Shown here piece after piece: positions 3,115-63,765 of a stretch of 64,000 nucleotides of DNA (the first letter of the stretch is position 1; each line of letters starts with the position of its first letter). The position numbers were made by a program, and so were the translations under genes. Below the pieces are notes generated by a model. The model was given only the letters and a program-made list of their open reading frames with translations, was not told the origin of the DNA and ran no database searches. Where the stretch lies: IMG/VR virus record IMGVR_UViG_3300033072_000529, one strand, 5' to 3'. Source of the DNA: a virus. Its lineage: Duplodnaviria > Caudoviricetes.

Positions 3115-3936
3115 TTAGTATTTAAGTTTTTTGCCACCTGGGAGGGTTAGTTTAGGATCAGGTATTTTATATATGTCGGAGTATTTTTTGGCTTTAGCTT
3201 TTGATCCAGGGGATATTGCATAGGCAAGGGGATCAGATATGACATAAGTCCCATCGGATCGTTTCATAATGTTTGCATCATGTAAATCAAGATCACCCAT
3301 AGTATTTCCTACAGTTTTGTATTCATCCATATGATTACGTAGGAAATCGATATCATTTAATAGTTGTAGGACATTAGGATTATTTGTGGGTAAGGTATTG
3401 TTGATTTTATGGTCCCTGATTGTCTCGTATTTGGCGATATCATTGTATATATATGATGCATCATTGCCTCCGTCGATATATCCTTTATATTCTGCAATGA
3501 TATCATTTAATTGTTCAATAGTATACTCGTATTTTATATTCAAGCATTGTTCAATTATATTGAACTGTTGTTTGGATAGGTGTACTAATTTTTCGATTTT
3601 GAGATAATATAGGGATTCCTCTACTAGGCTGCGCATGAACCGGGGATATATTTTACGGGGTTTGTCATAGAATTTAGGAAACGAAGGGCGGGGATTTTGT
3701 AGTACAAATCTAACGAAGCGTAGGTATGCGATATCTTGTTTAAATAGTTTCAGGACATAGTTCCAAGAGGGGTGATCTAATACCATGGCGAATGCTCCTT
3801 TGCCTGCTACCTTACCGCCGTGTTTTTTAAACCTTAATAGGATTTCATCTAGATATAAATCATCATTGGCAGGATTAAGTAATATATCCTGTATGGTCGT
3901 GGTTTCAGATATTAGGAAGAAGTCAAGGAAATTCAT
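3115..3936 (-). CDS. T7 gp0.7-like Ser/Thr protein kinase with internal-protein-type leader (paralog 1)
   Basis: GKGAF glycine loop, HP...VLK, catalytic DLHDANIM, VISDP; N-terminus MNFLDFFLISE. Confidence 0.8.
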   Translation of the reverse strand: MNFLDFFLISETTTIQDILLNPANDDLYLDEILLRFKKHGGKVAGKGAFAMVLDHPSWNYVLKLFKQDIAYLRFVRFVLQNPRPSFPKFYDKPRKIYPRFMRSLVEESLYYLKIEKLVHLSKQQFNIIEQCLNIKYEYTIEQLNDIIAEYKGYIDGGNDASYIYNDIAKYETIRDHKINNTLPTNNPNVLQLLNDIDFLRNHMDEYKTVGNTMGDLDLHDANIMKRSDGTYVISDPLAYAISPGSKAKAKKYSDIYKIPDPKLTLPGGKKLKY

Positions 3937-3944
3937 ATATATGA

Positions 3945-4766
3945 TTAGTATTTAAGTTTTTTGCCACCTGGGAGGTATGGTTTATATGAGGGGCTACTGT
4001 ATGCTGTCATCATTCTTTTTTGTTGGATATGTTCTCCTGAGTGATTAGCATGGGCAACAGGATCAGTTATTACATAAGACCCATTGGGGCGTACCATGAT
4101 ATTTTGGTTATGCATATCGAAATGTCCCATGGTGTTATCTGCAATCGGGTATTCTTCCACGGTCTGTTCCAAGAACTCCCAATCTTGTATCAATTGCTCT
4201 ATATGTTTGGATGCATTAGGTATAGTTCCATTTTCTAAATGCTGTTTGATTTCTTTATAATATTGTAAATCTTTTATTAGGGGACTGAATCCTTCAATAT
4301 GTTCCAGGTCTTGTTCCAATTTTCTTATTAGACGATTTATTTCTCGTAGATCGTATTCGTTTCTAATATCATATGCCATTCGGATATCGGTATATTCTTT
4401 ATGAGTTAGAGGTACTAGTTTTTCGATTTTGAGATAATATACTGCTTCATCTATTATAGGTCTACTATAACGAGGGTATATTTTACGGGGTTTATCATAG
4501 AATTTCGGAAAAGATGGTCGAGGATTTTGAAGTACAAATCTGACGAAGCGTAGATATGCAACATCATCAGTGAATATCTTCAAGACGTAATTCCAAGACG
4601 GATGATCTAATACGGTGGAGAAAGCACCAGTGTTATATACTTTACCGCCATGCTGTTTAAATACTCGTAGTATATCATCTAGTGCAATGTTATCATTGTC
4701 AGGATTCAACAGTATATCCTGTAAGGTAGTAGTCTCAGATAAAAGGAAGAAATCTAGGAAAGTCAT
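3945..4766 (-). CDS. T7 gp0.7-like Ser/Thr protein kinase with internal-protein-type leader (paralog 2)
   Basis: TGAFS, VLK, FDMHNQNIM...ITDPV (T7 gp0.7 recalled as FDMHSGNIM...ITDPV); N-terminus MTFLDFFLLSE. Confidence 0.8.
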   Translation of the reverse strand: MTFLDFFLLSETTTLQDILLNPDNDNIALDDILRVFKQHGGKVYNTGAFSTVLDHPSWNYVLKIFTDDVAYLRFVRFVLQNPRPSFPKFYDKPRKIYPRYSRPIIDEAVYYLKIEKLVPLTHKEYTDIRMAYDIRNEYDLREINRLIRKLEQDLEHIEGFSPLIKDLQYYKEIKQHLENGTIPNASKHIEQLIQDWEFLEQTVEEYPIADNTMGHFDMHNQNIMVRPNGSYVITDPVAHANHSGEHIQQKRMMTAYSSPSYKPYLPGGKKLKY

Positions 4767-4818
4767 ATACGATTAATGTATTTAATTACTTTTTAGAGAA
4801 GTATAAATATGATGATAT

Positions 4819-5769
4819 ATGATTAGCCCCAAAGAAAGTTTTCTGGATTTTTGGATCAATTACAACGTGATTCAAGAAAGAAAAGATGCTGAATATATTA
4901 CTAATGCTAAACAATGGGTAGATGAATGGGTGGATTGGGTGCATCATAAATTACCTAGAATAACACAATCAGTATATAATTATCGCAGCATAATACGTAA
5001 TAAAGAATATAGTGAGGATGATAAATCGTTTAGATATAATTCTCTAAAAAATACTATATATGATATGCGTCGATCTATATTTGGTATGGTTGACTTTCGG
5101 TATAATGCCGATTTAGCGGATGATCATATAGGGGGCGAGTATGATGCCGGTAAAGATCGAATTATAATGATTGATAATTTTGTGCACAATGCATTGCTTA
5201 GATTACAGAAATTAATGCTTGCATATATGCAACCCATACCTCGAACCGACGATAAACTATCAGCGGCTCAAATCAAAGAGGAACTTAGAACCTTAACAGA
5301 TAAAATCATTGCTCGAATATCTTCCAATCTATTCCGAAGTGTATTATTACATGAATATATTCATTCCATTCAAGATACTTTTTATAAGAAAGGTCACACG
5401 ACTATACAGGATAATGGTGATAATTGGACTGCCATAGAAGCCAAGAAAGCGGAGTTGTGGAAGAAGTGGAAGAGTAAAGTAGAAGCAGGAGAGTTAGAAT
5501 TAACTACAGCCATTCAGCTATATAATCAAGAATTACAGAAATGGGAACTGAGTAGATATTATAATGATCAACAAGAAGTTAATGCATATGTTCTACATAG
5601 TATATATGCTGTGGCAGATGGGGAGGATGTGTCTCAATTAAGTTTCCCTATTTTTAGGGCTAAGGTATTGGGTAAATTGGCCCGTACTCATAAAGAGGTA
5701 TTATCCAAGAAGAATAAAAAACGGATAGATAAACGTTTATATGATTATTGGTTGAAGACACAAGATTAG
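4819..5769 (+). CDS. putative zinc metallopeptidase (zincin) with leader
   Basis: G.Y motif, LLHEYIHSIQ, downstream YY...QEVNAY third ligand; ESFLDFW...IQE leader; TATAAATA upstream. Confidence 0.7.
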   Translation: MISPKESFLDFWINYNVIQERKDAEYITNAKQWVDEWVDWVHHKLPRITQSVYNYRSIIRNKEYSEDDKSFRYNSLKNTIYDMRRSIFGMVDFRYNADLADDHIGGEYDAGKDRIIMIDNFVHNALLRLQKLMLAYMQPIPRTDDKLSAAQIKEELRTLTDKIIARISSNLFRSVLLHEYIHSIQDTFYKKGHTTIQDNGDNWTAIEAKKAELWKKWKSKVEAGELELTTAIQLYNQELQKWELSRYYNDQQEVNAYVLHSIYAVADGEDVSQLSFPIFRAKVLGKLARTHKEVLSKKNKKRIDKRLYDYWLKTQD

Positions 5770-5788
5770 AATTACAGTAAATAATCAT

Positions 5789-7708
5789 ATGTCCTTTTTA
5801 GATTTCTATATGTCATATACGCCCTTATGGGAAAGCAGTATATATGATGATATAGGTGATGCTGCTAATAGTAGAGAATTATGGCAGATGGCTAAGGATA
5901 TGCGGGCGCATCCGTCTGACTATGCTGATAAATTCAATTTTGTGGATATGTTATGGGGTAATACTAACTCCTATACAGTATATCCATCCGATGATGGTAA
6001 ATCGGTGATTTATAAACAAATATATAAAGACTCTAAAACTTATATACCTTCATCATATGATCAACCGGATAAAAATATAGTAGCTAAACTTAGTAAGAAA
6101 AATATAGAAAAAGCGGTTCATGTTATTGTGGATTTATATAATGATCGACTTATGACCATATGGACTAAGCAGATTCAGATTGCTAAAAATAAAATCAAGC
6201 AACTTCGTAAAGATTGGGTAGATGATTTACCACAATTAAGAAAAGAAGCTACATCGGAAGAGGAATACTTGGCACAGAAAAAGGCACTACAGAAAATATA
6301 TAGAAAATCATACATCACACAAGAGAAAGCCTTAAACATCGCCACACAATTAAAAGATAAATGGACTAAAGATTATTATCCTAAACTTAAGAGTAATACG
6401 TTTGATGATATATGGGCACTATCATCTAAAGGTACTATACTTATGAATAATACTAATAAAATACCGGGTTATCCACAAGGGTTTAATAGTATATCAATGG
6501 ATATGAATAACATGTATGATGATTGGAATCGTATCATATTCCAGCCTGAACTTTTTTTCGATGATACTGATTATTCAAATACGGAATCATATGGAGACTT
6601 CGATGCTAGTAAAGGAGCATCCTATGAATTCACAAAATATTTGAAGGCTAATTTTCGAGATATAACAAAAACCCCTGCAATAAAATTACCATTACCCCGT
6701 GAGCCTTTAACAGATAAGGAATGGTATAAAATATTCAAAGAAAACAATATAACAACTTCATATATATATGAAATATTAATTCAAACAAAATATGATTCAC
6801 CAGTTCACCCTGAATTAATAGATAAACAATTGAAATTCTTACCGTATAATGTATTACAGAAAATATATATATCTGGTGAATCTCCTGTTAAATTAGCAAT
6901 ACAATCGTGTACTCATCGTAATAAAGGTTGGTTCAGTGAAGGTCCACATGGTGTTATTCATAGTGGTATACAAAACCCTGAATATGGTATACCATATCAA
7001 CCCACAAAAAAAGAAGCTTATAACTGGTTATTATATAACTCTAACAAAGGGAAACAATATGATAATTCGGATGCACGTAATAGTATGACATTATTGAATT
7101 GGCCTAGTTATATGATTAAACTGGCGTGTGAAAAAACCGGAGTGGATTACTTAGACTTAACTGATTCCCAACTATTGTCATTTGCCGATATGTTGGCTTT
7201 ACGATGGTTCTGTTTTAATATAAAAAGCACATTCTGGAATAAAGAAAGAACTGTTCATGGACCTGCTGGTGAATCTAGATTATTTAAACCGTTGGCACAT
7301 GTAGTACATATAACTGGCGCTGATTTACCTAATGGTTTAAAGACATCTCCTGAAAAAGCATTTGAACAATTGAATGAGCGCAAACGTAAAGAACAAGATG
7401 AAAAATATGCAAAAGATGAAGATATTAAATTTGATACGTATCCACAGTATCAGCCATTACCAGGGGTTCAGGTGATAACCAATCAGAAGCAATTGAAAAT
7501 CGAGGGAGAGCGAATGAATCACTGTGTTGGTGGTTACGGGAATTCATGTACCATGGGATCATCGTTAATATTAGCACTACCTAATTCAACGGCTGAACTC
7601 GACCCAAAAACACTTAGAGTATACCAACATTTTGGTATGACTAATTCTGACCCAGATGACTCTGATGTAGAATTACTAAAGCAATGGATCGCCTTGAATA
7701 AGAAATAG
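5789..7708 (+). CDS. putative internal virion protein with C-terminal PcfJ-like domain
   Basis: L..EGERMNHCVGGY...T.EL...Q..G..N; leader MSFLDFY...LWES. Confidence 0.65.
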   Translation: MSFLDFYMSYTPLWESSIYDDIGDAANSRELWQMAKDMRAHPSDYADKFNFVDMLWGNTNSYTVYPSDDGKSVIYKQIYKDSKTYIPSSYDQPDKNIVAKLSKKNIEKAVHVIVDLYNDRLMTIWTKQIQIAKNKIKQLRKDWVDDLPQLRKEATSEEEYLAQKKALQKIYRKSYITQEKALNIATQLKDKWTKDYYPKLKSNTFDDIWALSSKGTILMNNTNKIPGYPQGFNSISMDMNNMYDDWNRIIFQPELFFDDTDYSNTESYGDFDASKGASYEFTKYLKANFRDITKTPAIKLPLPREPLTDKEWYKIFKENNITTSYIYEILIQTKYDSPVHPELIDKQLKFLPYNVLQKIYISGESPVKLAIQSCTHRNKGWFSEGPHGVIHSGIQNPEYGIPYQPTKKEAYNWLLYNSNKGKQYDNSDARNSMTLLNWPSYMIKLACEKTGVDYLDLTDSQLLSFADMLALRWFCFNIKSTFWNKERTVHGPAGESRLFKPLAHVVHITGADLPNGLKTSPEKAFEQLNERKRKEQDEKYAKDEDIKFDTYPQYQPLPGVQVITNQKQLKIEGERMNHCVGGYGNSCTMGSSLILALPNSTAELDPKTLRVYQHFGMTNSDPDDSDVELLKQWIALNKK

Positions 7709-7709
7709 T

Positions 7710-8861
7710 TTATAATTGATCTTGTTGTGCCAATTCTTCTATTTTATGCATATCCCATTCCGGTGCATTTCGGTTGCCATATTGGATTGCATATCGTAGA
7801 TATTTTATGAGTTTTTCAACCTTAGTGTCGGCTTTTTTAATTCCTGCATCTTCGGGAGGAATCATAGCTATAGTTTGCGGGGTTATAGCTGTATAACCAT
7901 TCGTATAATATTGTTTACCTGATTTACCTACGATATGCATCATCAAATTATAGTCTTCCTCGGGATCAGATAATTCTGTGATGGACTTGACTTTACCTCT
8001 TAAAACTATGTTTACATTTAACAGAGTTGATTTGGTATCAGCGCGTATATATGCTTTTAAGTGATCAGCTAAACTGAATATGTATGGGAAATATTTCTCT
8101 TTAGGCTTAGTAACCGCAACACCTTGGGGTTCCGATAACTTATGTTGATTCGGAGAATAGGTTATTATGATATGTCCTTTATCATGCTTATCAAATAGTA
8201 CATACATAGTGCGGTCGGAATCAGTGCCCATCACACCCGTTGATCCGCAGTTTTTCATCAACCCTGCAACTAACTCGCATTTATCTCCTGCATCTATCCA
8301 TCTATACCCATCCGCAAAAGTCAATGCAGGTTCTTTATCTTGAAATATCTTCTTACGATTATATTTCTCAGTTGCATCCTTAAATGATAAATCTTTATAT
8401 TGATTTACATCCGTCACATGTCCTCTCAATATATCTCGAATAAGCGTGTTCTTAAAAAACACATTTTGCCATATCAATTCCTTTATTTCATATAGATATT
8501 GATATTTCTCCTCCGTCATATATTCATCCGTAACCTTATCTGGATCAATATCAATATCTAAATGATTTAATATTTTTATAAACTGCTCCTTATTTAGATT
8601 ATCACATGCCGTATAGGCTTTGACATACTCCGCAATATCGGGGTCTGATCTTCTGAACGAATGAGTTATATGATACCACCACTTGGGGTCTTTCGCAGCA
8701 GACTCTGTATATGTATGATATTCCTTGAACCATCGTGCTATAGTATATGACTTCTCGCCTAATTTGTCATAAAACAATTTAGCTATAATAGGTGGGAATC
8801 CTAAATTGATAACACTCTGTTTGGATTCTAATAAAGGTTGATAATAATCTATAAATCTCAT
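7710..8861 (-). CDS. putative internal virion protein with divergent PcfJ-like domain
   Basis: MKNCG...YVL.D....H......G....KPKEKY.PYI; leader MRFIDYYQPLLES. Confidence 0.55.
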   Translation of the reverse strand: MRFIDYYQPLLESKQSVINLGFPPIIAKLFYDKLGEKSYTIARWFKEYHTYTESAAKDPKWWYHITHSFRRSDPDIAEYVKAYTACDNLNKEQFIKILNHLDIDIDPDKVTDEYMTEEKYQYLYEIKELIWQNVFFKNTLIRDILRGHVTDVNQYKDLSFKDATEKYNRKKIFQDKEPALTFADGYRWIDAGDKCELVAGLMKNCGSTGVMGTDSDRTMYVLFDKHDKGHIIITYSPNQHKLSEPQGVAVTKPKEKYFPYIFSLADHLKAYIRADTKSTLLNVNIVLRGKVKSITELSDPEEDYNLMMHIVGKSGKQYYTNGYTAITPQTIAMIPPEDAGIKKADTKVEKLIKYLRYAIQYGNRNAPEWDMHKIEELAQQDQL

Positions 8862-8866
8862 ATATA

Positions 8867-11767
8867 TTACATTATAAAAATCTTATTAACATTCGCGCCT
8901 AATATATTATCAACTGTATAGGTTAGATCATTTTCTTTCACGGCAAGAATTTCATTTATGTCATCCTGTATGTTTGGTTGTAATCTTGGACCATTGGGTT
9001 TACCCCAAGCATTACTAGTTACCAACATAGGGGGTAAATCACGTTTGAATTTGACTTCTCCTTGTATAATATATTGTGCAAATATTTCCAATACAAATTC
9101 GGTTAAATTGTTGATATTTCTGTCTCTAGCGGATTTGAATGTACCTATGGCATAAGCCGTATTCATCAACACTTTATTATAATTAGGAGTTGGTCTAGGG
9201 GTTGCAATATTATAATGGTACTTTTCAAAATTCGGAGCAACACCATATGCAATTTGTGCAACTTCTGATAAACATGCATACACTTCTTTTACCAATAACC
9301 GCATATGCTTGGGTCTATTGTAGTAATCCCTATTACCTATCAATAATGCATGTCCTAATCTATGGGCCAGGGTCCATGCGGTGGTAGGAACTCTATTTGC
9401 TCCTATATTGTTAGTATATATGGCAGTGATATGATCCTTTTTAGGAGTGATGTTTATACCTAATGTATCATGTAATTGTTCAAGGGATACTTCGCCAGTT
9501 TCAAATGCTTTTTTACCTGGGGCAGACCGAACCATATATAGATCAAAATCATAAGAAGTTTTATCCCATAGTTTTCTGATTTTCTGTATACCTGCTTGAG
9601 ATGTTAATATACCCTGCGAAGGTTTGTCCCAACCATGTGCTTTTGCTTTAGGCGACCAATCCCCATGAAATTCTATATCTCCTATAGGTGCTTCTTGTAA
9701 CATGGTTTGATAGAAATCTGTGAATGACTCCCCTTGAGCATATCTAGCCTGTACACCCATTGCTGCTTTAGGTTTAACACCCATTGCTTTTAATGCTTGT
9801 GCTTTCTTAGCAGGATCAACATTATGTACTATCTGAGATACCTGTTCGATTTCTTCTGGTTCCGGCGCAGGCTTTGGTTTCTCTTTAGATTTAACCCCTG
9901 CTTTTTTTAATACCTGTTCCCATGATAGCTTATCCGATTGCATACCAAATTCAAATGTGCATTCCTCTAGATTTATATTATACGAATCCTGTAACAGAAA
10001 TTCTACCATATCTATATAGTTTTGATCTATACATGATGTTTGATTCCAAACAGAGAACACAGGATATCCTCCTAAATAACCGAATCTACCAATAGGATTA
10101 TTAGGAAAAGTGGATAAGAATGATCCCCTGCCTATAGTGGCATCATCGCCAGTTCTACTTAAGTATTGTATAAAATCTTCGGGCGGTTCCCCAACAGCAT
10201 ACACATTATCAAAATCTTCTATTTTTGCTTCTTCTAAATATACTTGTTGTAATATATCTAGTAAATCCCAATGAGTCATACTCTTATCATCGGACCACGC
10301 CATATAATCTTTCAACATGATAAAGACTATCATACCGCTTAGTTGTGTTTTATATATAGTATCAGGGTTTTCCAATAATACATCTGCTGATACTTGTGTA
10401 GATTCGCCTTGAGCATATCTAGCTTGCACGCCCATTGCAGCTTTAGGTTTAACACCCATTGCTTTTAATGCCTGGGCTTTCTTGGCAGGGTCTACATTGT
10501 GCACTATATGATCGGTAGATATATTCGTGGGTTTAGCCGCATCATGTTTATAATATAACTTACGGAATTGCGCAGCAGTTAATACTTTATCGTCTGCGGT
10601 GCCCGTATTAGTCGTTCCCGTGGTGAATTCATAAAACATTTTAGCTGGATCAATATTAAGCAATTTCAACATTTTAACAGTCTGTACAACCTGTTCGGGT
10701 TTAATATTAGGTGTACTCCAATATGATACAACTTTGCTAGATTCTGATACTCTACCTAATAAACAATCAGGATTATGTTGCACAAAACTATTTCTAAAAA
10801 ACCATGCCTCTTTTTTGTATCCAGTATTTATATTGGACAAAGACCCTTTAATCACAAGTTCAGCTATATCATAATCACATTTGGCATTACGTTTAATACA
10901 GTGAAGCATGACAAAAATATCGCCATGAGTATGGCCAGCATTAGTACTATATATAATGGCACTGGGTGTTAGTATAAAGGTGATGGCATCGCTATTATCA
11001 AACCATTCATCAGGATTTTCTTTTATAACCATCTTGTTAAAGGTATCTATAAAAGATTCTCCTTTAGCATATCTAGCTTGTACGCCCATTGCAGCCTTAG
11101 GTTTGATACCTTTATCTTTCATCATTGCTTTTCGTATGTTAGGATCAACCATGGTATGGGCTTGATCTTCAACATTAGACCAATCTACATCATCAACAGC
11201 ATTTGATGATCCATTATCTACTAACTCCCACAATTGTTCTATATTATATTGTTGGGGATGAACCATATTGGAATCTTTGTCCTTTGCGAATAGTTCGTAT
11301 TTGAAATTACTTGGGTCAATCTTTAGAGTATCATATATAAATGATTCCAATGCCCGAAGATTATCATGGGTTAAATCAGATATATTATTCCATAAGGATA
11401 ATTGATTGTTGCTTCTCCACACTCTACCTATCAATATTCCAAGGTTATATGCTCTGGAAAGTTCCAACAATTTAGATCGTTTGCCTGTGTTTTCTTGTAA
11501 GAATGATTTTATATCAGTAAAATCTCCTTGGAATCGATATGTGGACCACTCCTCTAATTGCTGGAAATGTAGATTATTATTCTGCTCTTTACTGAATTCC
11601 CGTAATGCTTTATACATATAAGCATGTTTTTCCGCCACGATTTTATTCACTGCCCACATAGTGAATTTAGGCGATATAGTGAAAGGTATAGCATTATTAG
11701 ATACCCATGATATACCATTCATGTTATCAGGACTTTCATTTACTATATAATGTTCGAAGAAATTCAT
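8867..11767 (-). CDS. four-module repeat protein / putative polyprotein (three paralogous domains plus a HRLGH zincin-like domain)
   Basis: Start reassigned from 11821 to ATG 11767 (MNFFEHYIVNES) with TAAATA 7 nt upstream; three KPKAAMGVQARYAxGES linkers. Confidence 0.75.
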   Translation of the reverse strand: MNFFEHYIVNESPDNMNGISWVSNNAIPFTISPKFTMWAVNKIVAEKHAYMYKALREFSKEQNNNLHFQQLEEWSTYRFQGDFTDIKSFLQENTGKRSKLLELSRAYNLGILIGRVWRSNNQLSLWNNISDLTHDNLRALESFIYDTLKIDPSNFKYELFAKDKDSNMVHPQQYNIEQLWELVDNGSSNAVDDVDWSNVEDQAHTMVDPNIRKAMMKDKGIKPKAAMGVQARYAKGESFIDTFNKMVIKENPDEWFDNSDAITFILTPSAIIYSTNAGHTHGDIFVMLHCIKRNAKCDYDIAELVIKGSLSNINTGYKKEAWFFRNSFVQHNPDCLLGRVSESSKVVSYWSTPNIKPEQVVQTVKMLKLLNIDPAKMFYEFTTGTTNTGTADDKVLTAAQFRKLYYKHDAAKPTNISTDHIVHNVDPAKKAQALKAMGVKPKAAMGVQARYAQGESTQVSADVLLENPDTIYKTQLSGMIVFIMLKDYMAWSDDKSMTHWDLLDILQQVYLEEAKIEDFDNVYAVGEPPEDFIQYLSRTGDDATIGRGSFLSTFPNNPIGRFGYLGGYPVFSVWNQTSCIDQNYIDMVEFLLQDSYNINLEECTFEFGMQSDKLSWEQVLKKAGVKSKEKPKPAPEPEEIEQVSQIVHNVDPAKKAQALKAMGVKPKAAMGVQARYAQGESFTDFYQTMLQEAPIGDIEFHGDWSPKAKAHGWDKPSQGILTSQAGIQKIRKLWDKTSYDFDLYMVRSAPGKKAFETGEVSLEQLHDTLGINITPKKDHITAIYTNNIGANRVPTTAWTLAHRLGHALLIGNRDYYNRPKHMRLLVKEVYACLSEVAQIAYGVAPNFEKYHYNIATPRPTPNYNKVLMNTAYAIGTFKSARDRNINNLTEFVLEIFAQYIIQGEVKFKRDLPPMLVTSNAWGKPNGPRLQPNIQDDINEILAVKENDLTYTVDNILGANVNKIFIM
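9725..11110 (-). repeat. three copies of the linker repeat (about 9725-9830, 10402-10508, 11057-11110)
   Basis: GCATATCTAGC.TG.AC.CCCATTGC.GC.TTAGGTTT recurs three times on the + strand, differing mainly at third codon positions. Confidence 0.9.
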
Positions 11768-11777
11768 ATAAGGATAT

Positions 11778-12341
11778 TTATTTTGTAATGAGGAATCTAT
11801 AGTCATAGCCGACTGTCTCACTTCCTCTTATACCCCAATAATTATGTAACTCCTCAGGATTATTCACATGTTTAATAACTTTATCATGCTGTGTTATATA
11901 TAAACTATATCCCGCATCTATGAACCGTTGGAAATTTCTTTTATAAAAGTTGAATCCTTTATCTGATAATCCTGAATCAGATTGCACTTTTTTAAATTTG
12001 GGTAATAAGAAATTTATATAGAAATGAAACATCAAGGAGTCTCCTTTCAATACAGGTTTAGCTTGAGTTGATTCAGTTGTTATACCATTCGCTCCTTTAG
12101 CAATACCGCTGTATTTTCCGACCATTTGTTCATTATTGATTATAACATATTGCTTATTGTTAGAATATTCTTGGTTACTATTTTCCATGACATCAAATGT
12201 CATATAATTAACACTGAACGTGGCAATAGTATGGAATGAACTGGTTTGCCATAAAGGTCGTTTATCCCAGGAACCAAAATCAACCTCTCCTAACCGAAGA
12301 GGCATCTCTAATAAAGGTTTATAGAATTCTAAAAATGTCAT
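11778..12341 (-). CDS. GNAT-fold-like protein with leader
   Basis: KG.SLM..FY...SD..LS.KG..FY.R pattern; leader MTFLEFYKPLLEM. Confidence 0.5.
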   Translation of the reverse strand: MTFLEFYKPLLEMPLRLGEVDFGSWDKRPLWQTSSFHTIATFSVNYMTFDVMENSNQEYSNNKQYVIINNEQMVGKYSGIAKGANGITTESTQAKPVLKGDSLMFHFYINFLLPKFKKVQSDSGLSDKGFNFYKRNFQRFIDAGYSLYITQHDKVIKHVNNPEELHNYWGIRGSETVGYDYRFLITK

Positions 12342-12345
12342 AGTA

Positions 12346-12876
12346 TTATTGTAATAATTTCTGCCAAAAGGCGGGCGTTCCCATTACATATTTGGTGAGT
12401 TTTCCAATGCCTGGAAAGTTTAGAATAATACCACCATCATCTGAATAATCTATAAATGTGGCATCTCCTAATATATTTAATTGCAATGCTGCATCCAGGG
12501 CATATTTATTTGGAGGCGGCATCATTCCTGCACCTGATAAAAAAGGTACTACATTAGCCGTACACACCCCATATAATGGTACATTTGTTTGAACTAATGC
12601 CCGAAGTGTTTTCGTTTTACGCATCATATTTCCCGCCATAGCTACCAATTTCATATAATCATTATTATTTTTTTTGGCAGCTATCCAACCAGTATCATTG
12701 CCGTAAAATGTCCAATGTTTCGCTTTAGATATGAATGTTTCTTTTGGCCAGGAATAGCCCGTGGATTTAATATATTCATTACGGAATACATCATAGGCTT
12801 TATCTAAATCCATGTTGGGAATAGGCGCAGATTCTACCATTAACGTATAATGGATATAAAACTCTAGAAATGTCAT
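12346..12876 (-). CDS. hypothetical putative internal protein
   Basis: Leader MTFLEFY...MVES; no confident catalytic motif. Confidence 0.6.
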   Translation of the reverse strand: MTFLEFYIHYTLMVESAPIPNMDLDKAYDVFRNEYIKSTGYSWPKETFISKAKHWTFYGNDTGWIAAKKNNNDYMKLVAMAGNMMRKTKTLRALVQTNVPLYGVCTANVVPFLSGAGMMPPPNKYALDAALQLNILGDATFIDYSDDGGIILNFPGIGKLTKYVMGTPAFWQKLLQ

Positions 12877-12892
12877 AACATCAATAGTATTC

Positions 12893-13315
12893 TTACACTC
12901 TAGCAGTTTGTATTAGTTGCTCTACTTCTTCTTGTGTTCCTGCACTGATCAACGATTTAAAAAAGGTTGCCAATTGTCCATCATCCATATGTTGTAGACC
13001 GGGTAAAGTTTTTGAAGGAACACGAAAAACATTAGCCAATAGGAATTTACCATACCGTATGATGTTCTTGTCAGAGGACGCTAGAATGGCTCTCTCGCCC
13101 TGTTCAAAGCGTCCACGCACATTGTGAATAGCATGTGCCACAGCAGTCACACCAGACGTTGCAATAGCCTTCAAATACTTCTCCTTAGTCTCAGGCAACA
13201 TCTGCCCTTGCTTAATATTCCAATTAGCAAATGCTCTACGAGCCGAAATATGTCGGGGTTTTTTAACTGGTTCAATGGATTCCACCAGAATAGAAAGTAG
13301 TTTATCGAATTTCAT
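12893..13315 (-). CDS. hypothetical putative internal protein
   Basis: Leader MKFDKLLSILVES; TAAATA 7 nt upstream. Confidence 0.65.
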   Translation of the reverse strand: MKFDKLLSILVESIEPVKKPRHISARRAFANWNIKQGQMLPETKEKYLKAIATSGVTAVAHAIHNVRGRFEQGERAILASSDKNIIRYGKFLLANVFRVPSKTLPGLQHMDDGQLATFFKSLISAGTQEEVEQLIQTARV

Positions 13316-13337
13316 ATAATAATATTTACCATTTCAC

Positions 13338-18861: not shown

Positions 18862-19356
18862 ATGAATATGGAATTTACCAAACTTTTACAATCATTAACT
18901 GAAGACTGCGACAGTGTAATCTTCACCGAAAATGCAGAAATAATAACGGCCCATGATAAAGTACTCATTGATCCGAAAGCACTAGGATCAAATGCCGAGG
19001 AATTGATTAAACGTAAGGGACAACCTTATTATAATCAGTTAAAGCTATTGGCAAATGAGAAACGCTTGCTAACCGTGACTGCTATCAAGAGAGTTAATCG
19101 CACATCTGCTAACTTCACCGATGGTGGATCATCCACATGGCAAGATGAAGTAGATGTGGTATCCCAATTTAATCCAGGGAATTTTCACTCTCCTATGAGT
19201 TTACCTATCAATATATTAGTGAAACATTCTGATTATAATGGTAGTTTTCAAACCCCACTAGATGATTCCACGGGGTATAAACCCAATACACAAGAAGATA
19301 CTATATCAGATTATAATGATGGTAAGCAACCTAAAGGCACCCGTCATCGTAAATAA
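18862..19356 (+). CDS. hypothetical virion protein with leader-like N-terminus
   Basis: MEFTKLLQSLTE; TAAATA upstream. Confidence 0.6.
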   Translation: MNMEFTKLLQSLTEDCDSVIFTENAEIITAHDKVLIDPKALGSNAEELIKRKGQPYYNQLKLLANEKRLLTVTAIKRVNRTSANFTDGGSSTWQDEVDVVSQFNPGNFHSPMSLPINILVKHSDYNGSFQTPLDDSTGYKPNTQEDTISDYNDGKQPKGTRHRK

Positions 19357-35347: not shown

Positions 35348-35659
35348 ATGGCAAGTCGGTTTAATACATACATAGAACAAGTTTACAGAATGATCGAAGA
35401 ATCCAAACGCCCTAAATGTACAGGGCCTGGTTTACCAGAACTATCATCTAAACGTGGTTATAAATTCTCTAGATGTGTAGAGAACCCATATTCTGATGGT
35501 TATAAAAGAATATTCTACGGTAAAGTAGGAAAAAAGACTAACATCGCTAAATGTCTAAAAAATATGCCTCAAGCAGGAACAGGCAAATATGAAGATTGTA
35601 AGCTGGCTATACGAGCATGGAAACGCCGATTGGCTCTTAAACGGGCGAAAAAGGCATAA
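35348..35659 (+). CDS. small basic Cys-containing protein with leader-like N-terminus
   Basis: MASRFNTYIE...MIEES; Lys/Arg-rich; TAAATA upstream. Confidence 0.6.
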   Translation: MASRFNTYIEQVYRMIEESKRPKCTGPGLPELSSKRGYKFSRCVENPYSDGYKRIFYGKVGKKTNIAKCLKNMPQAGTGKYEDCKLAIRAWKRRLALKRAKKA

Positions 35660-42887: not shown

Positions 42888-43577
42888 ATGCAACAATATA
42901 ATGTAGTCCGAAAACTTATAGTAGAATCACCTATGTATGATTTGAAATATGAAACTATACAGGAAAATAGATCAGAGGAAAGAAAACTCATGATAAATGG
43001 ACGGTATTTGATGCTTAATAGAATCAATAAAAATCGTCGTATATATGAATCTTCTGAGATGATCCCAGCTATAGAAGCATTCCATAAAGATTTCATAATG
43101 GATAATCGAGGTGGGGGTGAATGTAACCATAGCCCTGATCCAGAAGTAAAGTTGGACAGATTGGCCCATAAAATAGTATCGCTAACTCGCGATCCTCAAG
43201 ACGAGGATTTTTATATAGGTCGTTCAGAAATTATCACCGCGAATCCCCCAGGTCGCATATTAGAAGGTCTTATCAAGCATAATATGAAATTCGGGTTGAG
43301 CAGTAAAGCCTTGGGTATAATCGAGGAAGGCAGTGATGGTAATAAAGTCAAGAAACCGATTCTGTTATCAGTGGATGCGGTGTATGATCCATCTGCAAGT
43401 CCATGTTTCATTAATGGTATCTATGAAAATAGGGAATATATCATAGGCAATGACGGCAAGGCACATGAGGCATTCACTCAATTGACTAAAGATTTATCTA
43501 AATATCCCTCAAGACATTCTGATGCAATCAAAGCCCATATCGTGGAATCTTTCAAGAAGATGTTAGCAAATATATAA
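42888..43577 (+). CDS. gp21: prohead protease, gp21-like
   Basis: N.NRRIY, GECNH, H.I..L, P.G.IL..L, FGLSSKALG, D.V.DPSA. Confidence 0.92.
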   Translation: MQQYNVVRKLIVESPMYDLKYETIQENRSEERKLMINGRYLMLNRINKNRRIYESSEMIPAIEAFHKDFIMDNRGGGECNHSPDPEVKLDRLAHKIVSLTRDPQDEDFYIGRSEIITANPPGRILEGLIKHNMKFGLSSKALGIIEEGSDGNKVKKPILLSVDAVYDPSASPCFINGIYENREYIIGNDGKAHEAFTQLTKDLSKYPSRHSDAIKAHIVESFKKMLANI

Positions 43578-43578
43578 T

Positions 43579-44031
43579 ATGAATCGTTTTAATACCTTTG
43601 TTAAATTGGCACTAGAGAATGATGTTGAATCATTACCTATAATTACCCCTGTTACTGATGTTGAGATCATAACTGATCAACCAGTAGGATGCACTATAGA
43701 GGATATACAGCATTATCTATCAGTTGTATCAGATATGGAACAACGTTTAGATGATGATCTATTCAAGGGTCATAAAACATCTTTAGAATATGCCTTGGGC
43801 AAGGTACGCCGAGCATTGCATAGAGTATTGCGCGATAATCCAGCATGCCATGAAATGGATTGCAACTCCGAATCTACTGATAATGCTGAATTAGAAATGG
43901 GTATAGATGATGAAGCAGAAGAGCATGAAGATGTAACCCATGGTGATAAAGACGTGGCAGAAAAAATCGCTAAAGGACATCTAAAACAAAATCCCAAGTA
44001 TTATACTAAATTGAAAAAATGCGGGTTATAA
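43579..44031 (+). CDS. DUF5661-like protein with leader-like N-terminus
   Basis: EL.MG...E.EH......A.KIA..HL...P.YY.KL; MNRFNTFVKLALE. Confidence 0.65.
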   Translation: MNRFNTFVKLALENDVESLPIITPVTDVEIITDQPVGCTIEDIQHYLSVVSDMEQRLDDDLFKGHKTSLEYALGKVRRALHRVLRDNPACHEMDCNSESTDNAELEMGIDDEAEEHEDVTHGDKDVAEKIAKGHLKQNPKYYTKLKKCGL

Positions 44032-44315: not shown

Positions 44316-45209
44316 ATGGAAAACGAATTGTCCTCAATTTTAGAATCAATTGATAAAGAAATCTTTACAGAAGATGTGAAGAAACAATTGAGTGCCTATG
44401 TAGAATCTCTTACTGAGAAAAAAGCTGAAAAGCTGGTGTCTGAACGGACACATTTAGCAGTAGAAGCCGCATTGAAAACTCAAGATGAAGATTATGCTAG
44501 AAAATTAGCACAATATGCAGAAGCAGTCGATATAGATCGAACCAATAAAACTAAACTTATTGTTAAGCATCTAAATGAAGACTTCAAGGCCAAAATGAAA
44601 CAACTATCTGAGGCATACGAAAGTATATTGAAGAAGAAAGCAGTGGACACCCAAATGCACATAGTGCGTTCTGTTGATGCCTTCTTGGATCAATATATTG
44701 AACAAACCTGTCCAGTTGGTATGATCGCAGAGGCTGCAAAGAATAATATTGCTGCTAAGACTCTGGATAGCATTCGCAATGCCGTTGGTATTGATGCTAA
44801 ACTAGTGAGCGAAAATGTTAAGACTGCCGTAAAAGATGGTAAAGCCAAGATAGATGCATTAGCTAAGGAAAAGCAACGCTTAGCTAGAGAAAATGCAAAT
44901 ATCAAAAAGGCTGCACTATTAGCAGAAGCAACTATCAATCTTCCTAAAGCGAAAGCTAAATTTATAGTGGAACAGCTTAAAGACAAGCCTTTGGACTTTG
45001 TAAAAGCTAATATCAAGTTTGTATCAGAAATGTTTGATCGTCCGATTAATCGTAGACAATCAGCATTCGATGCTACACCTGTTAATAACGTGGATCGGCA
45101 AAAGGTAGCTGATGAGTTAATTAGAGAAAACGCTGAGAATCAGCCAACTTATTTAGGTAGCACTGACGCTATCTCAATGTACATGGAAGGCTTGAAACAC
45201 AGACGCTAA
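44316..45209 (+). CDS. gp22: prohead scaffold, gp22-like
   Basis: Coiled-coil, VDAFLD..I, MYM..L end; between protease and major capsid gene. Confidence 0.8.
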   Translation: MENELSSILESIDKEIFTEDVKKQLSAYVESLTEKKAEKLVSERTHLAVEAALKTQDEDYARKLAQYAEAVDIDRTNKTKLIVKHLNEDFKAKMKQLSEAYESILKKKAVDTQMHIVRSVDAFLDQYIEQTCPVGMIAEAAKNNIAAKTLDSIRNAVGIDAKLVSENVKTAVKDGKAKIDALAKEKQRLARENANIKKAALLAEATINLPKAKAKFIVEQLKDKPLDFVKANIKFVSEMFDRPINRRQSAFDATPVNNVDRQKVADELIRENAENQPTYLGSTDAISMYMEGLKHRR

Positions 45210-45254
45210 TATAAGTCAATCGAAAATTGACTAAAATTCAGTAAATATAAACAT

Positions 45255-46847
45255 ATGCTAAACCTAGCCTCAAACTACGTAGATTCTGCCCCTTCCTTGA
45301 TCAACAAGGAACGAGGTCGCCAATTAATCGCTAAGTGGAAACCAGTATTGGAACACTCAGACAGTCAAACCAAACCTATTATAGGTGCACACAAGCAACT
45401 TACAACCGCTATCGTCTTGGAAAGCCAAGAAAGATGGTTGGCTGAAAACGGACACATGTCCCGTCGTCTAATGCAAGAAGCCCTTCCTACCGGAAGTGGT
45501 GCAGGTGGTCCTCCACTTGTATCAGGTGGAACAAATACTGCATTCGGCTCCGTTAATAACGGTCAATACGGTGGTATTGGTCAAGCTACCAATGGTGCTG
45601 GTATTAATACCAACTCCGACTGGTATGCACCAGGAGACGCCCGTCTTCCTAAGACCGTTATTCCGATGATCCGTCGTACCTTCCCTGAATTGATCACCCA
45701 CGAAATCGTTGGTGTTCAACCAATGGCAGGTCCAGTCGGTCTTGCGTTCGCTCTTCGTTATTTCTATGATGAAGACCCTCTTGCATGTTCACCTTATAAT
45801 GATCGCGGCTGTTCAGGTTCCAAAACCTATCCAACTGGTCACTTAGGCACTTCAAATAACGAAGTTGGTTATAACCAACTATTCACCGGTCACACTGGTA
45901 TTACTGCTGCTGGCTTGTCTGGTCTAGGTCTAACAACCTCCACCACTGGTTCTGCTACTGCATTCCCATTCGTTCCTGGCCAAGATACTGGTGTTGCTCA
46001 ATTGCTATCACATTTTGAAGCATCTTCCAATATCCCAACTATGTCACTTAAGATTGACAAGCAAGCTGTTGAAGCTGGTACTCGTCGTCTTGCTACTAGC
46101 TGGTCTATCGAACTTGAACAAGATATCATGAACATGAACGGAATCGACATCGATTCCGAAATGACAAATGCTATGTCTTATGAAATTCAAGCAGAAATCG
46201 ACCGTGAAATGGTTGTTCGCATGATTCAAGCTGCTCTAAATGCTGGTAATGGTACAGGTTATTCAATCTGGAAGCCAGGTCTTGCAGATGGTCGTTGGCT
46301 CGCTGAACGTGGTGTAGATTTCTACTCCAAGATCATCATCGAAGCTAACCGTATCGCTATCCGTAACCGTCGTGGTCCTGCTAACTTCATCATCGCTACT
46401 CCTAAGGTTTGTACTATCCTACAACTCCTAAAAGAGTTCGCTCCGTTCAATATCAACTCTGCTGTGCAAACTCACCCTAATGGTGTTGCTCGCGTAGGTA
46501 CTCTTGCTGGTCAGTTCACCCTGTATCGCGATACCCGTACCGAAGCACAATACCTATCAGGTGTTCGTGCTGAGCCAGTAGAATATGCTCTATTGGGTTA
46601 TAAAGGTGCTGAATTCTGGGATACCGGTTTGATCTACTGCCCATATATTCCAGTGCTTGTACAACGTACAATCGCTCCTCATACCTTCACCCCAATCGTG
46701 GGTATGATGACCCGTTATGGTGTGGTTGACCACATGTTTGGTATAGAAAACTTCTACCACATCATTATCGCTAAAGATTTGAATAGAACAGTGACATGGG
46801 ATGGATGCGCAGCATCTGCCTGCTCACCAGTCTATTTGGGTCAATAA
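45255..46847 (+). CDS. gp23: major capsid protein, gp23-like
   Basis: KW.PVL, IRR.FP.LI..EIVGVQPM.GPVGL.FALR, EIQAEIDRE, RRG..NF, GYKG...D.G..YCPYIP, F.P..G..TRYG. Confidence 0.97.
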   Translation: MLNLASNYVDSAPSLINKERGRQLIAKWKPVLEHSDSQTKPIIGAHKQLTTAIVLESQERWLAENGHMSRRLMQEALPTGSGAGGPPLVSGGTNTAFGSVNNGQYGGIGQATNGAGINTNSDWYAPGDARLPKTVIPMIRRTFPELITHEIVGVQPMAGPVGLAFALRYFYDEDPLACSPYNDRGCSGSKTYPTGHLGTSNNEVGYNQLFTGHTGITAAGLSGLGLTTSTTGSATAFPFVPGQDTGVAQLLSHFEASSNIPTMSLKIDKQAVEAGTRRLATSWSIELEQDIMNMNGIDIDSEMTNAMSYEIQAEIDREMVVRMIQAALNAGNGTGYSIWKPGLADGRWLAERGVDFYSKIIIEANRIAIRNRRGPANFIIATPKVCTILQLLKEFAPFNINSAVQTHPNGVARVGTLAGQFTLYRDTRTEAQYLSGVRAEPVEYALLGYKGAEFWDTGLIYCPYIPVLVQRTIAPHTFTPIVGMMTRYGVVDHMFGIENFYHIIIAKDLNRTVTWDGCAASACSPVYLGQ

Positions 46848-49867: not shown

Positions 49868-50668
49868 CTATTTTTGGGTGTTCACTATAGTTTTAATTTC
49901 TTCCGATTTAACACGCTGATTATATTCATGTTTTTTAGACCAATCGTAGTATTTATCCCATAATATAGATAATACAGTATATAACGATTTTAGAAACCGC
50001 TTCTTAATATTGGGTGGCATATCTCTATAATCATCATAATTGTTTATAATAGATCGAATATGTCTATTAATACTATGTTTATCAGCATACATGTTTAACC
50101 ATTTACCTTTTTGTAGCAATCTAATCCATTGATCATTTATGATTGCAGCTTGTTCTATAACTCTGGCATTGGTTTCTTTTCCTTGTGAAATATGCGGTTT
50201 ATCATCGTCCTGCCACATACTTTTTATTTTATTATCAACTTCCCAGGCATGTTGCAATTCGTGAGATATAGTGGATATTATATTAGTAGTGGAACCCATT
50301 TTCAATGTATTGATCAATGCTCTTTGTAGAGATGCAGTATTCAATCCGCGATATCGCGCACCTGTTCCAAGTATAGCAAAAATATAAAGTATTATGAGAT
50401 TGGTCGAAGGATGCGGGGAATATTCATCCCGTGCAGGAAGCCATATTGCGCGTGCATCTGACATTTCTGGATTTTTATAATTATTGAATGCCTTTAACAT
50501 AATTGTTAGAGGTTTTTTAAATCCTGGCACGCTGATAGTATTACTGCCGGACTGTAATGTTAATTTACCGTCTAAGATAGCATCTATTATAAATTGTGCA
50601 ATAATTCTAAAATTTATCACATTGGTCGCCCAATTTTTCTTTTCTAGGAAATATTTTAGAAATCGCAT
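49868..50668 (-). CDS. putative zincin metallopeptidase with leader
   Basis: ISHELQHAW, downstream E..A; MRFLKYFLE; TAAATA upstream. Confidence 0.6.
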   Translation of the reverse strand: MRFLKYFLEKKNWATNVINFRIIAQFIIDAILDGKLTLQSGSNTISVPGFKKPLTIMLKAFNNYKNPEMSDARAIWLPARDEYSPHPSTNLIILYIFAILGTGARYRGLNTASLQRALINTLKMGSTTNIISTISHELQHAWEVDNKIKSMWQDDDKPHISQGKETNARVIEQAAIINDQWIRLLQKGKWLNMYADKHSINRHIRSIINNYDDYRDMPPNIKKRFLKSLYTVLSILWDKYYDWSKKHEYNQRVKSEEIKTIVNTQK

Positions 50669-63174: not shown

Positions 63175-63765
63175 ATGACTATACCAAATAAATTTGATAC
63201 TTATCTATTTAAGCTGTTCCAAGAAGCAGGTGCTCCCCTACCACCAAAACCATCAACACCTATTGGAGGTCAGACAGTAGATGAACCCACATCATTAGGC
63301 GATACAGGTGCAGAAGATAACGCAATGAGCGAGTTTCTAGACCCTGATACGAATGCAGATGAGTTCGATGTCAAAGACGGTCTAGGACAAGCTGTAGACC
63401 GTGTAATACAAGATTTCCACACTCGCATGAGTCAATTCGCAAGTGTTGTGGCTCCAGAAAATCTTTCCGGTCTATCATTACCAGATTTAAAAGACCATGT
63501 ATTGGAGATTAAGAAATTTGTGGATAATATCCAAAATAATACCAAACAACAAGCAGGTGAAAAAGCACTGCGTGATCCTGCTGTCGTGGTAGCCCAATAT
63601 ATATCAGAATATGCTGCAAAAACGGCGGCATTTAATGAATTACATTCCAACCTGGAAGAATTCGTAAGTTCTGTGGAAGAAACTGAGCGTCAAATTGCTA
63701 CATTGGCCAGCAAAATTGATGCCTTTATAACTGATGTGGGCGAGGATGATAACGGTGGTCTATAA
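63175..63765 (+). CDS. acidic helical late protein with leader-like N-terminus
   Basis: KFDTYLFKLFQEA; two TAAATA boxes upstream. Confidence 0.65.
   Translation: MTIPNKFDTYLFKLFQEAGAPLPPKPSTPIGGQTVDEPTSLGDTGAEDNAMSEFLDPDTNADEFDVKDGLGQAVDRVIQDFHTRMSQFASVVAPENLSGLSLPDLKDHVLEIKKFVDNIQNNTKQQAGEKALRDPAVVVAQYISEYAAKTAAFNELHSNLEEFVSSVEETERQIATLASKIDAFITDVGEDDNGGL

Follow-up and report, generated by a model that had tools for sequence, protein, structure and literature searches.

Nine consecutive genes of a T4-like jumbo phage share a leader resembling the capsid-targeting sequence of T4 internal proteins

Introduction

By way of the capsid-targeting sequence (CTS) of bacteriophage T4, four proven inhibitors of type IV restriction have come to light. 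Proteins that carry a CTS associate with the prohead core, are cleaved, are retained in the head, and are injected into the host (PMC5694885, PMC12373910). The prohead protease gp21 cuts after L/I-x-E, and CTS residues 4 and 7 serve targeting, with residues 8 and 10 serving processing (PMC9026906). Here, we analyze a 64,000-nucleotide stretch (hereafter, the window) of the IMG/VR virus record IMGVR_UViG_3300033072_000529, in which nine consecutive genes begin with a leader similar to the T4 CTS. The window derives from a 272-kb contig of a T4-like jumbo phage, whose major capsid protein is ~31% identical to those of the nearest cultured phages, cyanomyoviruses.

Other described systems share parts of this arrangement. 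T4 Alt is a large, late-made, gp21-processed, and injected protein-modifying enzyme (an ADP-ribosyltransferase). Polyvalent proteins are chains of disparate domains that include enzyme classes predicted to be injected (Iyer et al. 2017, PMC5512222). Kinases of the T7 gp0.7 (T7K) family provide a precedent for broad anti-defence phosphorylation (PMC13645617, PMC12345140). T7K homologues of jumbo phages have lost the DNA-binding domain and are described as uncharacterised, and we found no passage on their packaging in the same paper (PMC13645617). In the literature searched, which did not reach most subscription papers, no description was found of clusters of CTS-tagged enzymes, either in jumbo phages or anywhere outside the T-even phages.

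Results

The initial annotation of the window had placed nine consecutive open reading frames (ORFs) with similar N-termini at positions 3115-13315, and their coordinates and starts were confirmed. The shared start reads M-x-F-x-x-(F/Y/L)...hydrophobic-x-E, and the leader ends in L/I-x-E in six of the nine genes and in V/M-x-E or F-L-E-type variants in the other three. A hand-made regular expression matched all nine but was circular; it was therefore replaced by a two-anchor profile trained only on proteins from other phages, namely, standalone homologues of the fourth module of the polyprotein described below (105 sequences for the Glu anchor and 67 for the Phe anchor, none from the window), with percentiles of internal positions as background. 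Eight of the nine cluster genes scored at or above the 99th percentile of this background, and the ninth had a p value of 0.023. Only 1 of the 48 other ORFs in the window passed (18862; Fisher p=5e-8). When the 157 genes of T4 (NC_000866) were scored as a control, ipI ranked first and ipII and ipIII ranked eighth and ninth.

The leader Glu behaves as a cleavage site and domain boundary would. The residue two before it (P3) was hydrophobic in all 119 external homologues examined (L or I in 100), and P2 varied, a pattern that matches the L/I-x-E rule of gp21 (PMC9026906). In three unrelated families the Glu was kept in 45/46, 25/25, and 10/12 sequences; the leader itself was gapped and variable in length, and the conserved domain followed directly after the Glu. 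Kinase homologues at 28-39% identity retained the leader with a looser boundary. In two predicted models, the leader forms a separate helix of low confidence. As the initial annotation stated, the window contains a gp21 gene; the His, Ser, and Asp catalytic motifs of its product align with those of T4 gp21 (5jbl), and its own N-terminus ends L-I-V-E. The genome encodes both a prohead protease and a head module of the T4 type. The gene beside the major capsid protein gene is probably the scaffold gene, a name given from position and site density (2.7 L/I-x-E sites per 100 amino acids) and lacking profile confirmation; the major capsid protein has Glu sites at residues 57-75. By analogy with T4, the leader is likely a cleaved prohead propeptide.

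Copies of the leader also occur inside the sixth gene, which encodes a polyprotein of 966 amino acids read from the ATG at 11767; the same protein is present in an independent JGI gene call and contig. Modules 1 to 3 are paralogous (23-34% identical), module 4 is unrelated to them, and a leader precedes each of the four. The joints read G-E-S-(F)...hydrophobic-x-E. Internal leader 3 was the top internal match to the profile (13.0), and standalone homologues begin at this point: a search with the polyprotein against 1.84 billion representatives returned 827 matches, and most of the best 150 of these were standalone proteins of 260-300 amino acids with their own leader, matching module 4 from the internal leader on. 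The same joints were found in eight other polyproteins, and an internal leader is also present in a fusion of the 383-amino-acid family. In these polyproteins, terminal copies of the repeated module end G-D-stop, and internal copies read G-E-S (C-termini of P0024, P0026, P0077, and P0108). In T4, processing is blocked when the cut position holds Asp. Of the 16 distinct joints, just 6 have an upstream E-S (background 6%), most of them in the closer clade; double cleavage of the internal leaders is therefore a lead only. Contigs from two public sequencing runs span most of the region without listed differences, those of one run from end to end in overlapping pieces, which argues that the polyprotein is not an assembly artefact; the contigs break mainly at the repeats of the region. 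The simplest reading is that once-separate tagged genes fused, so that the polyprotein would be packaged as a single chain and cut apart by gp21.

The transcription units of the cluster had been described as starting with late-type TAAATA boxes, and this was borne out. TAAATA lies 4-14 nucleotides before the ATG of six of the nine genes (3936, 4766, 4819, 5789, 11767, and 13315), and each of the other three lies behind a boxed gene of its own strand. Two boxes, at 11780 and 3954, run into the upstream gene, overlapping its stop codon or final codons. The genome-wide count of TAAATA followed by ATG was not above that of shuffled sequences (36 versus 35 ± 6), but ~32 of 35 distinct boxes were located at gene starts, so the evidence is positional and not count based. 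The count of sigma-70 promoters equalled that of shuffles. At the ~32 late gene starts, the box lies just 4-14 nucleotides upstream of the start codon, with no evident Shine-Dalgarno sequence, which suggests nearly leaderless late messages. Early transcription had been proposed as a refutation of packaging; this is a weak argument because T4 ipI-III, which have no TATAAATA within 40 nucleotides upstream, are expressed early and yet packaged.

Nearly leaderless messages of this kind, together with leader DNA of 83-87% similarity between unrelated genes (repeats D7 and D15), are what would be expected if the shared starts had arisen through the copying of AT-rich promoter and start cassettes, or through biased translation starts, and did nothing at the protein level. 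This explanation is largely refuted and highly improbable, given that the motif is missing from other late genes that carry the box, that synonymous codons vary, and that the motif is retained in families of 27-44% identity and at joints far from start codons.

The distribution of leaders was surveyed in ~80 other viral loci. TAAATA boxes preceded 51 of 119 leader genes (43%) and 228 of 1,541 others (15%; p=2e-12), and leader genes were adjacent in 22 of 74 pairs (30%) versus 53 of 1,133 (5%; p=4e-11). The leader-positive genes fell into 71 families, most of them unannotated; named domains included ART-PolyVal (three), GNAT (two), PcfJ, T7K, and lysozyme. Of these, ART-PolyVal, GNAT, PcfJ, and T7K represent enzyme types whose injection has been predicted (PMC5512222). 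Contigs with kinase homologues had tagged-gene blocks of their own with other contents, including ART-PolyVal, further kinases, and PcfJ. No module-4, 383-amino-acid family, or GNAT genes were found in the cultured phages searched. A small kinase cluster with tagged genes (EVB91_001-003) occurs in the cultured T4-like Rhizobium phage RHph_I1_18, which offers a practical test system. Its three-gene unit (locus L090, 41-2567) lies behind ATAAATA and comprises two tagged genes, one for a kinase and one unknown, and a gene in which a kinase domain is fused behind a stretch resembling an internal leader. In Yersinia phage YerA41, the 639-amino-acid YerA41_160 (locus L089, 6540-8459), annotated as 'structural protein', matches the PcfJ region and has a leader score of 8.9.

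A single short aromatic pattern before so many unrelated folds suits a single shared receptor, and the profile also recognises T4 leaders with a proven targeting role. Both observations speak against the leader being an inhibitory or timing propeptide, or an outer-virion docking tag, that gp21 uses or removes without directing the protein into the head, as does the low-confidence separate helix seen in the two models. An off switch would benefit toxic enzymes made late, and the evidence locates the cut more precisely than it does the destination; even so, we regard this explanation as quite improbable.

The chief alternative is that the proteins are indeed targeted to the prohead and cleaved there but serve head assembly (as core components, scaffold helpers, or maturation enzymes) and are then degraded or retained, not delivered. 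Leader-like starts occur among head-core genes (35348, 43579, 63175, and gp21 itself), T4 IPIII takes part in head morphogenesis (PMC9026906), and the very wide distribution of the H-R-x-G-H module (222 confirmed IMG/VR matches) differs from that of a fast-changing anti-defence gene. A role confined to head assembly nonetheless appears unlikely: kinases, GNAT, ART-PolyVal, and PcfJ proteins have no known function in head assembly, the cargo set differs widely between related phages, and the cluster lies ~30 kb away from the head genes.

Assignments of the cargo genes are collected in Table 1. The two kinases claimed by the initial annotation belong to the T7K family by profile and catalytic motifs: the catalytic K, D-x-H-x-x-N, and D are invariant or retained in the alignment, DPL occupies the DFG position of kinase 1, and kinase 2 has the DPV motif found in T7K (PMC13645617). 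The 11-residue leader of kinase 1 ends L-I-S-E (score 14.9), and that of kinase 2 scores 15.9. The two are paralogues with 53% identity, an exception to the claim that the nine genes are mostly non-homologous. The match to phrog_2828 covers the kinase core only, and the kinase profile found no match among Protein Data Bank (PDB) sequences. T7 gp0.7 and JSS1_004 are of the same family by profile and share the DPV-type motif (PMC13645617, PMC12345140). Unlike T7K, which is early and has a C-terminal DNA-binding domain, the window kinases carry a leader and a late box and end in no more than a short basic tail; the DNA-binding (shut-off) domain was not found in either protein, both of which stop ~35 residues past the kinase core. 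The 3' ends of the kinase genes are near identical (3115-3154 and 3945-3984; 41 nucleotides, 93%), TAAATA box included. Because the box of kinase 1 (3949-3954) is held within this stretch, in the last codons of kinase 2, the end of kinase 2 doubles as a putative promoter of kinase 1. No ORF follows the copy behind kinase 1.

Both polyprotein module types were modelled with pLDDT values of 91 and 82, and neither gave a significant fold match in structure searches, including an Atlas search with module 2. For module 4, the best Foldseek match had E=0.11 and the best VIA match had Z 5.2 (root mean square deviation 3.0, 78 residues aligned), to unrelated helical proteins. Weak PD-(D/E)XK, metallo-beta-lactamase, and anthrax-LF matches were set aside. 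Neither module family was assigned in Pfam/PHROG-type profile searches, and no MuF or ArdC anchor was found. H-R-x-x-H is invariant in 46 homologues of module 4 and, with two conserved downstream Glu residues, may form a metal site. An ordinary zincin protease is not supported, as an invariant Arg occupies the position of the zincin catalytic Glu and there is no HExxH.

The zincins listed in the initial annotation are thus reduced to the HExxH protein at 4819-5769, called by motif only, with a SprT-like match (E=0.015) below the cut-off. Its 20-residue leader has an E-S-F start that resembles the internal joints. One of the two PcfJ-like proteins stood, that at 5789-7708 (PF14284, 41.4 bits versus a cut-off of 25; 15-residue leader; TAAATA at 5778), with leader-bearing homologues 33-34% identical in locus L005. 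The other, at 7710-8861, was not supported: none of 12 homologues had a Pfam match to PcfJ, and the hhalign probability was <1% on shallow profiles. The GNAT-like protein announced for the cluster corresponds to 11778-12341, for which comparison of structures predicted on both sides supports a GNAT fold; it has a 12-residue leader (score 13.8) and no Pfam match. No family or relative of the 176-amino-acid protein was found, metagenome contigs included. Together with this protein, those of 383 and 140 amino acids make up the three unassigned members of the cluster.

Table 1. Coordinates of the leader-bearing genes and associated features in the window
Feature	Position	Strand	Evidence or detail
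T7 gp0.7 (T7K)-family Ser/Thr kinase 1, 273 aa	3115..3936	-	phrog_15752 E=1.4e-7
T7K-family kinase 2, 273 aa	3945..4766	-	phrog_15752 E=2.6e-11, phrog_2828 E=3.6e-5, PF27024 (Phage_T7_kinase)
Divergent late-type box pair	4779..4809		TAAATA on - (4779-4784), TATAAATA on + (4802-4809)
HExxH zincin-like protein, 316 aa	4819..5769	+	HEYIH motif; leader score 11.6
639-aa protein, C-terminal PcfJ domain (514-625)	5789..7708	+	PF14284 E=1.6e-10
383-aa protein, unnamed family, invariant M-x-N-C-G-S	7710..8861	-	Domain directly after leader Glu
966-aa polyprotein	8867..11767	-	Three paralogous ~220-aa modules + terminal ~275-aa H-R-x-G-H module
Internal leader 3, residues 679-692	9692..9733	-	G-E-S-F ... 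M-L-Q-E then A-P
Internal leader 2, residues 454-466, degenerate	10370..10408	-	G-E-S ... L-L-E then N-P-D
Internal leader 1, residues 236-250	11018..11062	-	G-E-S-F ... V-I-K-E then N-P-D
GNAT-fold protein, 187 aa	11778..12341	-	ESM Atlas TM 0.61-0.67 to viral Acetyltransf_1 clusters
176-aa protein	12346..12876	-	15-aa leader, score 10.1
140-aa protein	12893..13315	-	12-aa leader; first gene of - strand unit; TAAATA 13323-13328
Prohead protease gp21 (Peptidase_S77)	42888..43577	+	PF03420 E=6.8e-13, phrog_207 E=7.9e-37
Probable scaffold + major capsid protein	44316..46847	+	phrog_138 E=1e-79; site density
Outlying leader-bearing HExxH (HELQH) protein	49868..50668	-	Leader score 7.1, p=0.014; TATAAATA box
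aa, amino acids.

Weaker leader-like starts outside the cluster were found at 18862, 49868, 63175, 43579, and 35348. The gene at 49868-50668 is probably a tenth cargo gene, judging from its leader and box; its product showed no BLAST similarity to that of 4819-5769. Late genes amid head and baseplate genes (18862-19356, 35348-35659, 43579-44031, and 63175-63765) carry leaders of another subtype, [RK]-F-[NDT]...L/I-x-E, which also occurs at 5595-6077 of locus L006. The basic tail at the end of the 35348-35659 product recalls T4 gp68 by eye, with no profile support. Upstream of the cluster, positions 1-2840 have a higher GC content (44% over 1-2000 versus ~35% in the cluster), end in a strong terminator hairpin (2800-2839), and include an AAA+ gene (1126-2148) with weak clamp-loader profile matches. 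Some 7 kb past the window end (L006, 11604-14545), an N6-methyltransferase gene adjoins an IS1595 transposase.

Discussion

The initial annotation had read the shared starts as capsid-targeting leaders cleaved by gp21. Recognition of the T4 internal-protein leaders by the same profile, the P3/P2 pattern, the boundary at the Glu, the internal copies, the boxes at other loci, and the gp21 gene all favour that reading; its cargo list held in part, as set out above. We consider it probable, by analogy with T4, that these leaders act as capsid-targeting propeptides of the T4 type and that the shuffled enzyme cargo behind them is cleaved by gp21 and delivered with the DNA. Taken by itself, injection of the mature cargo also seems likely. 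A role in anti-defence or host takeover, suggested by T7K, Alt, and polyvalent proteins, is only somewhat favoured.

As in T4, the proteins would be made late and bind the prohead core via the aromatic leader residues, the phage's own gp21 would cut after hydrophobic-x-Glu in head maturation, and the freed mature proteins would remain in the head. The 966-amino-acid chain would be packaged whole, and cleavage at the joints would release its four modules. On infection, the mature proteins would reach the host together with the DNA and work ahead of phage transcription through T7K-type phosphorylation, acetylation, proteolysis, and further activities, most likely to counter host defence or to take over the host. 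New cargo could be gained by copying the short leader before, or between, new domains.

Several observations weigh against this interpretation. The profile is imperfect: T4 57B ranks second of 157, and Alt, gp67, and gp68 score poorly (Alt at rank 79). Gene 57B (L092, 33952-34410) lies beside ipI and scores as high as ipI, and it may be a false positive. L/I-x-E also occurs within mature domains, so cleavage specificity must come from context. Mature chains of 262-624 amino acids are larger than the T4 internal proteins, though Alt has 682. If a promiscuous kinase is packaged, it would have to be kept inactive while the late proteins are being made, and no mechanism for this is evident. The 'structural protein' label in YerA41 could not be traced to a proteomics table. 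About 4 of the 71 leader-positive families are housekeeping (RNR, PolB, dCMP deaminase, and AAA), though this is near the 1% false-positive rate. The initial annotation had taken a motif equally common on replication and metabolic genes as a refutation; the motif was not equally common there, since named matches among untagged controls were mostly metabolic and auxiliary enzymes.

Compared with known systems, the cluster is closest to the T4 internal proteins. Both have a short leader with aromatics near positions 3-7, a hydrophobic-x-Glu end, unrelated mature parts, and a gp21/gp22/gp23-type head module, and the cluster-family profile recognises T4 leaders. At least nine genes are found here in one block, whereas T4 has three in two loci; the cargo has 128-624 amino acids, in contrast to the 8- to 20-kDa restriction inhibitors of T4; and late-type boxes and leaders repeated inside polyproteins are added. 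Relatives of the window phage carry leader-tagged ART-PolyVal genes, which recalls Alt, but no Alt homologue is in the cluster, and the seven-residue Alt propeptide fails the leader profile. Kinase, GNAT, ART, and zincin classes are common to the cluster and the polyvalent proteins. Unlike the latter, the cluster consists mostly of single-domain genes joined by the leader, its processing is predicted to occur by the prohead protease at internal leaders and not by an MPTase, it lacks a detectable MuF or ArdC anchor, and its kinases are of the T7K type, not Kinase-PolyVal. At the sequence level, then, the locus has the properties of T4 internal-protein genes; what appears new is the scale, the enzymatic cargo, the late boxes, and the internal leaders in polyproteins.

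More tentatively, a large group of uncultured T4-like jumbo phages could package dozens of enzyme families by one CTS-type address, including ready-made T7K-type kinases and gp21-cleaved polyproteins with excisable internal leaders, cut on both sides, that free undescribed folds; the tag would then predict the injected proteome from the sequence by itself. The principle is established in T4, which limits the surprise. If true, the finding would mean virion delivery of a T7K-type kinase and polyproteins cut by a viral protease in a DNA phage. If the address works in jumbo phages, it would allow proteins that act within the first seconds after infection to be picked out by sequence.

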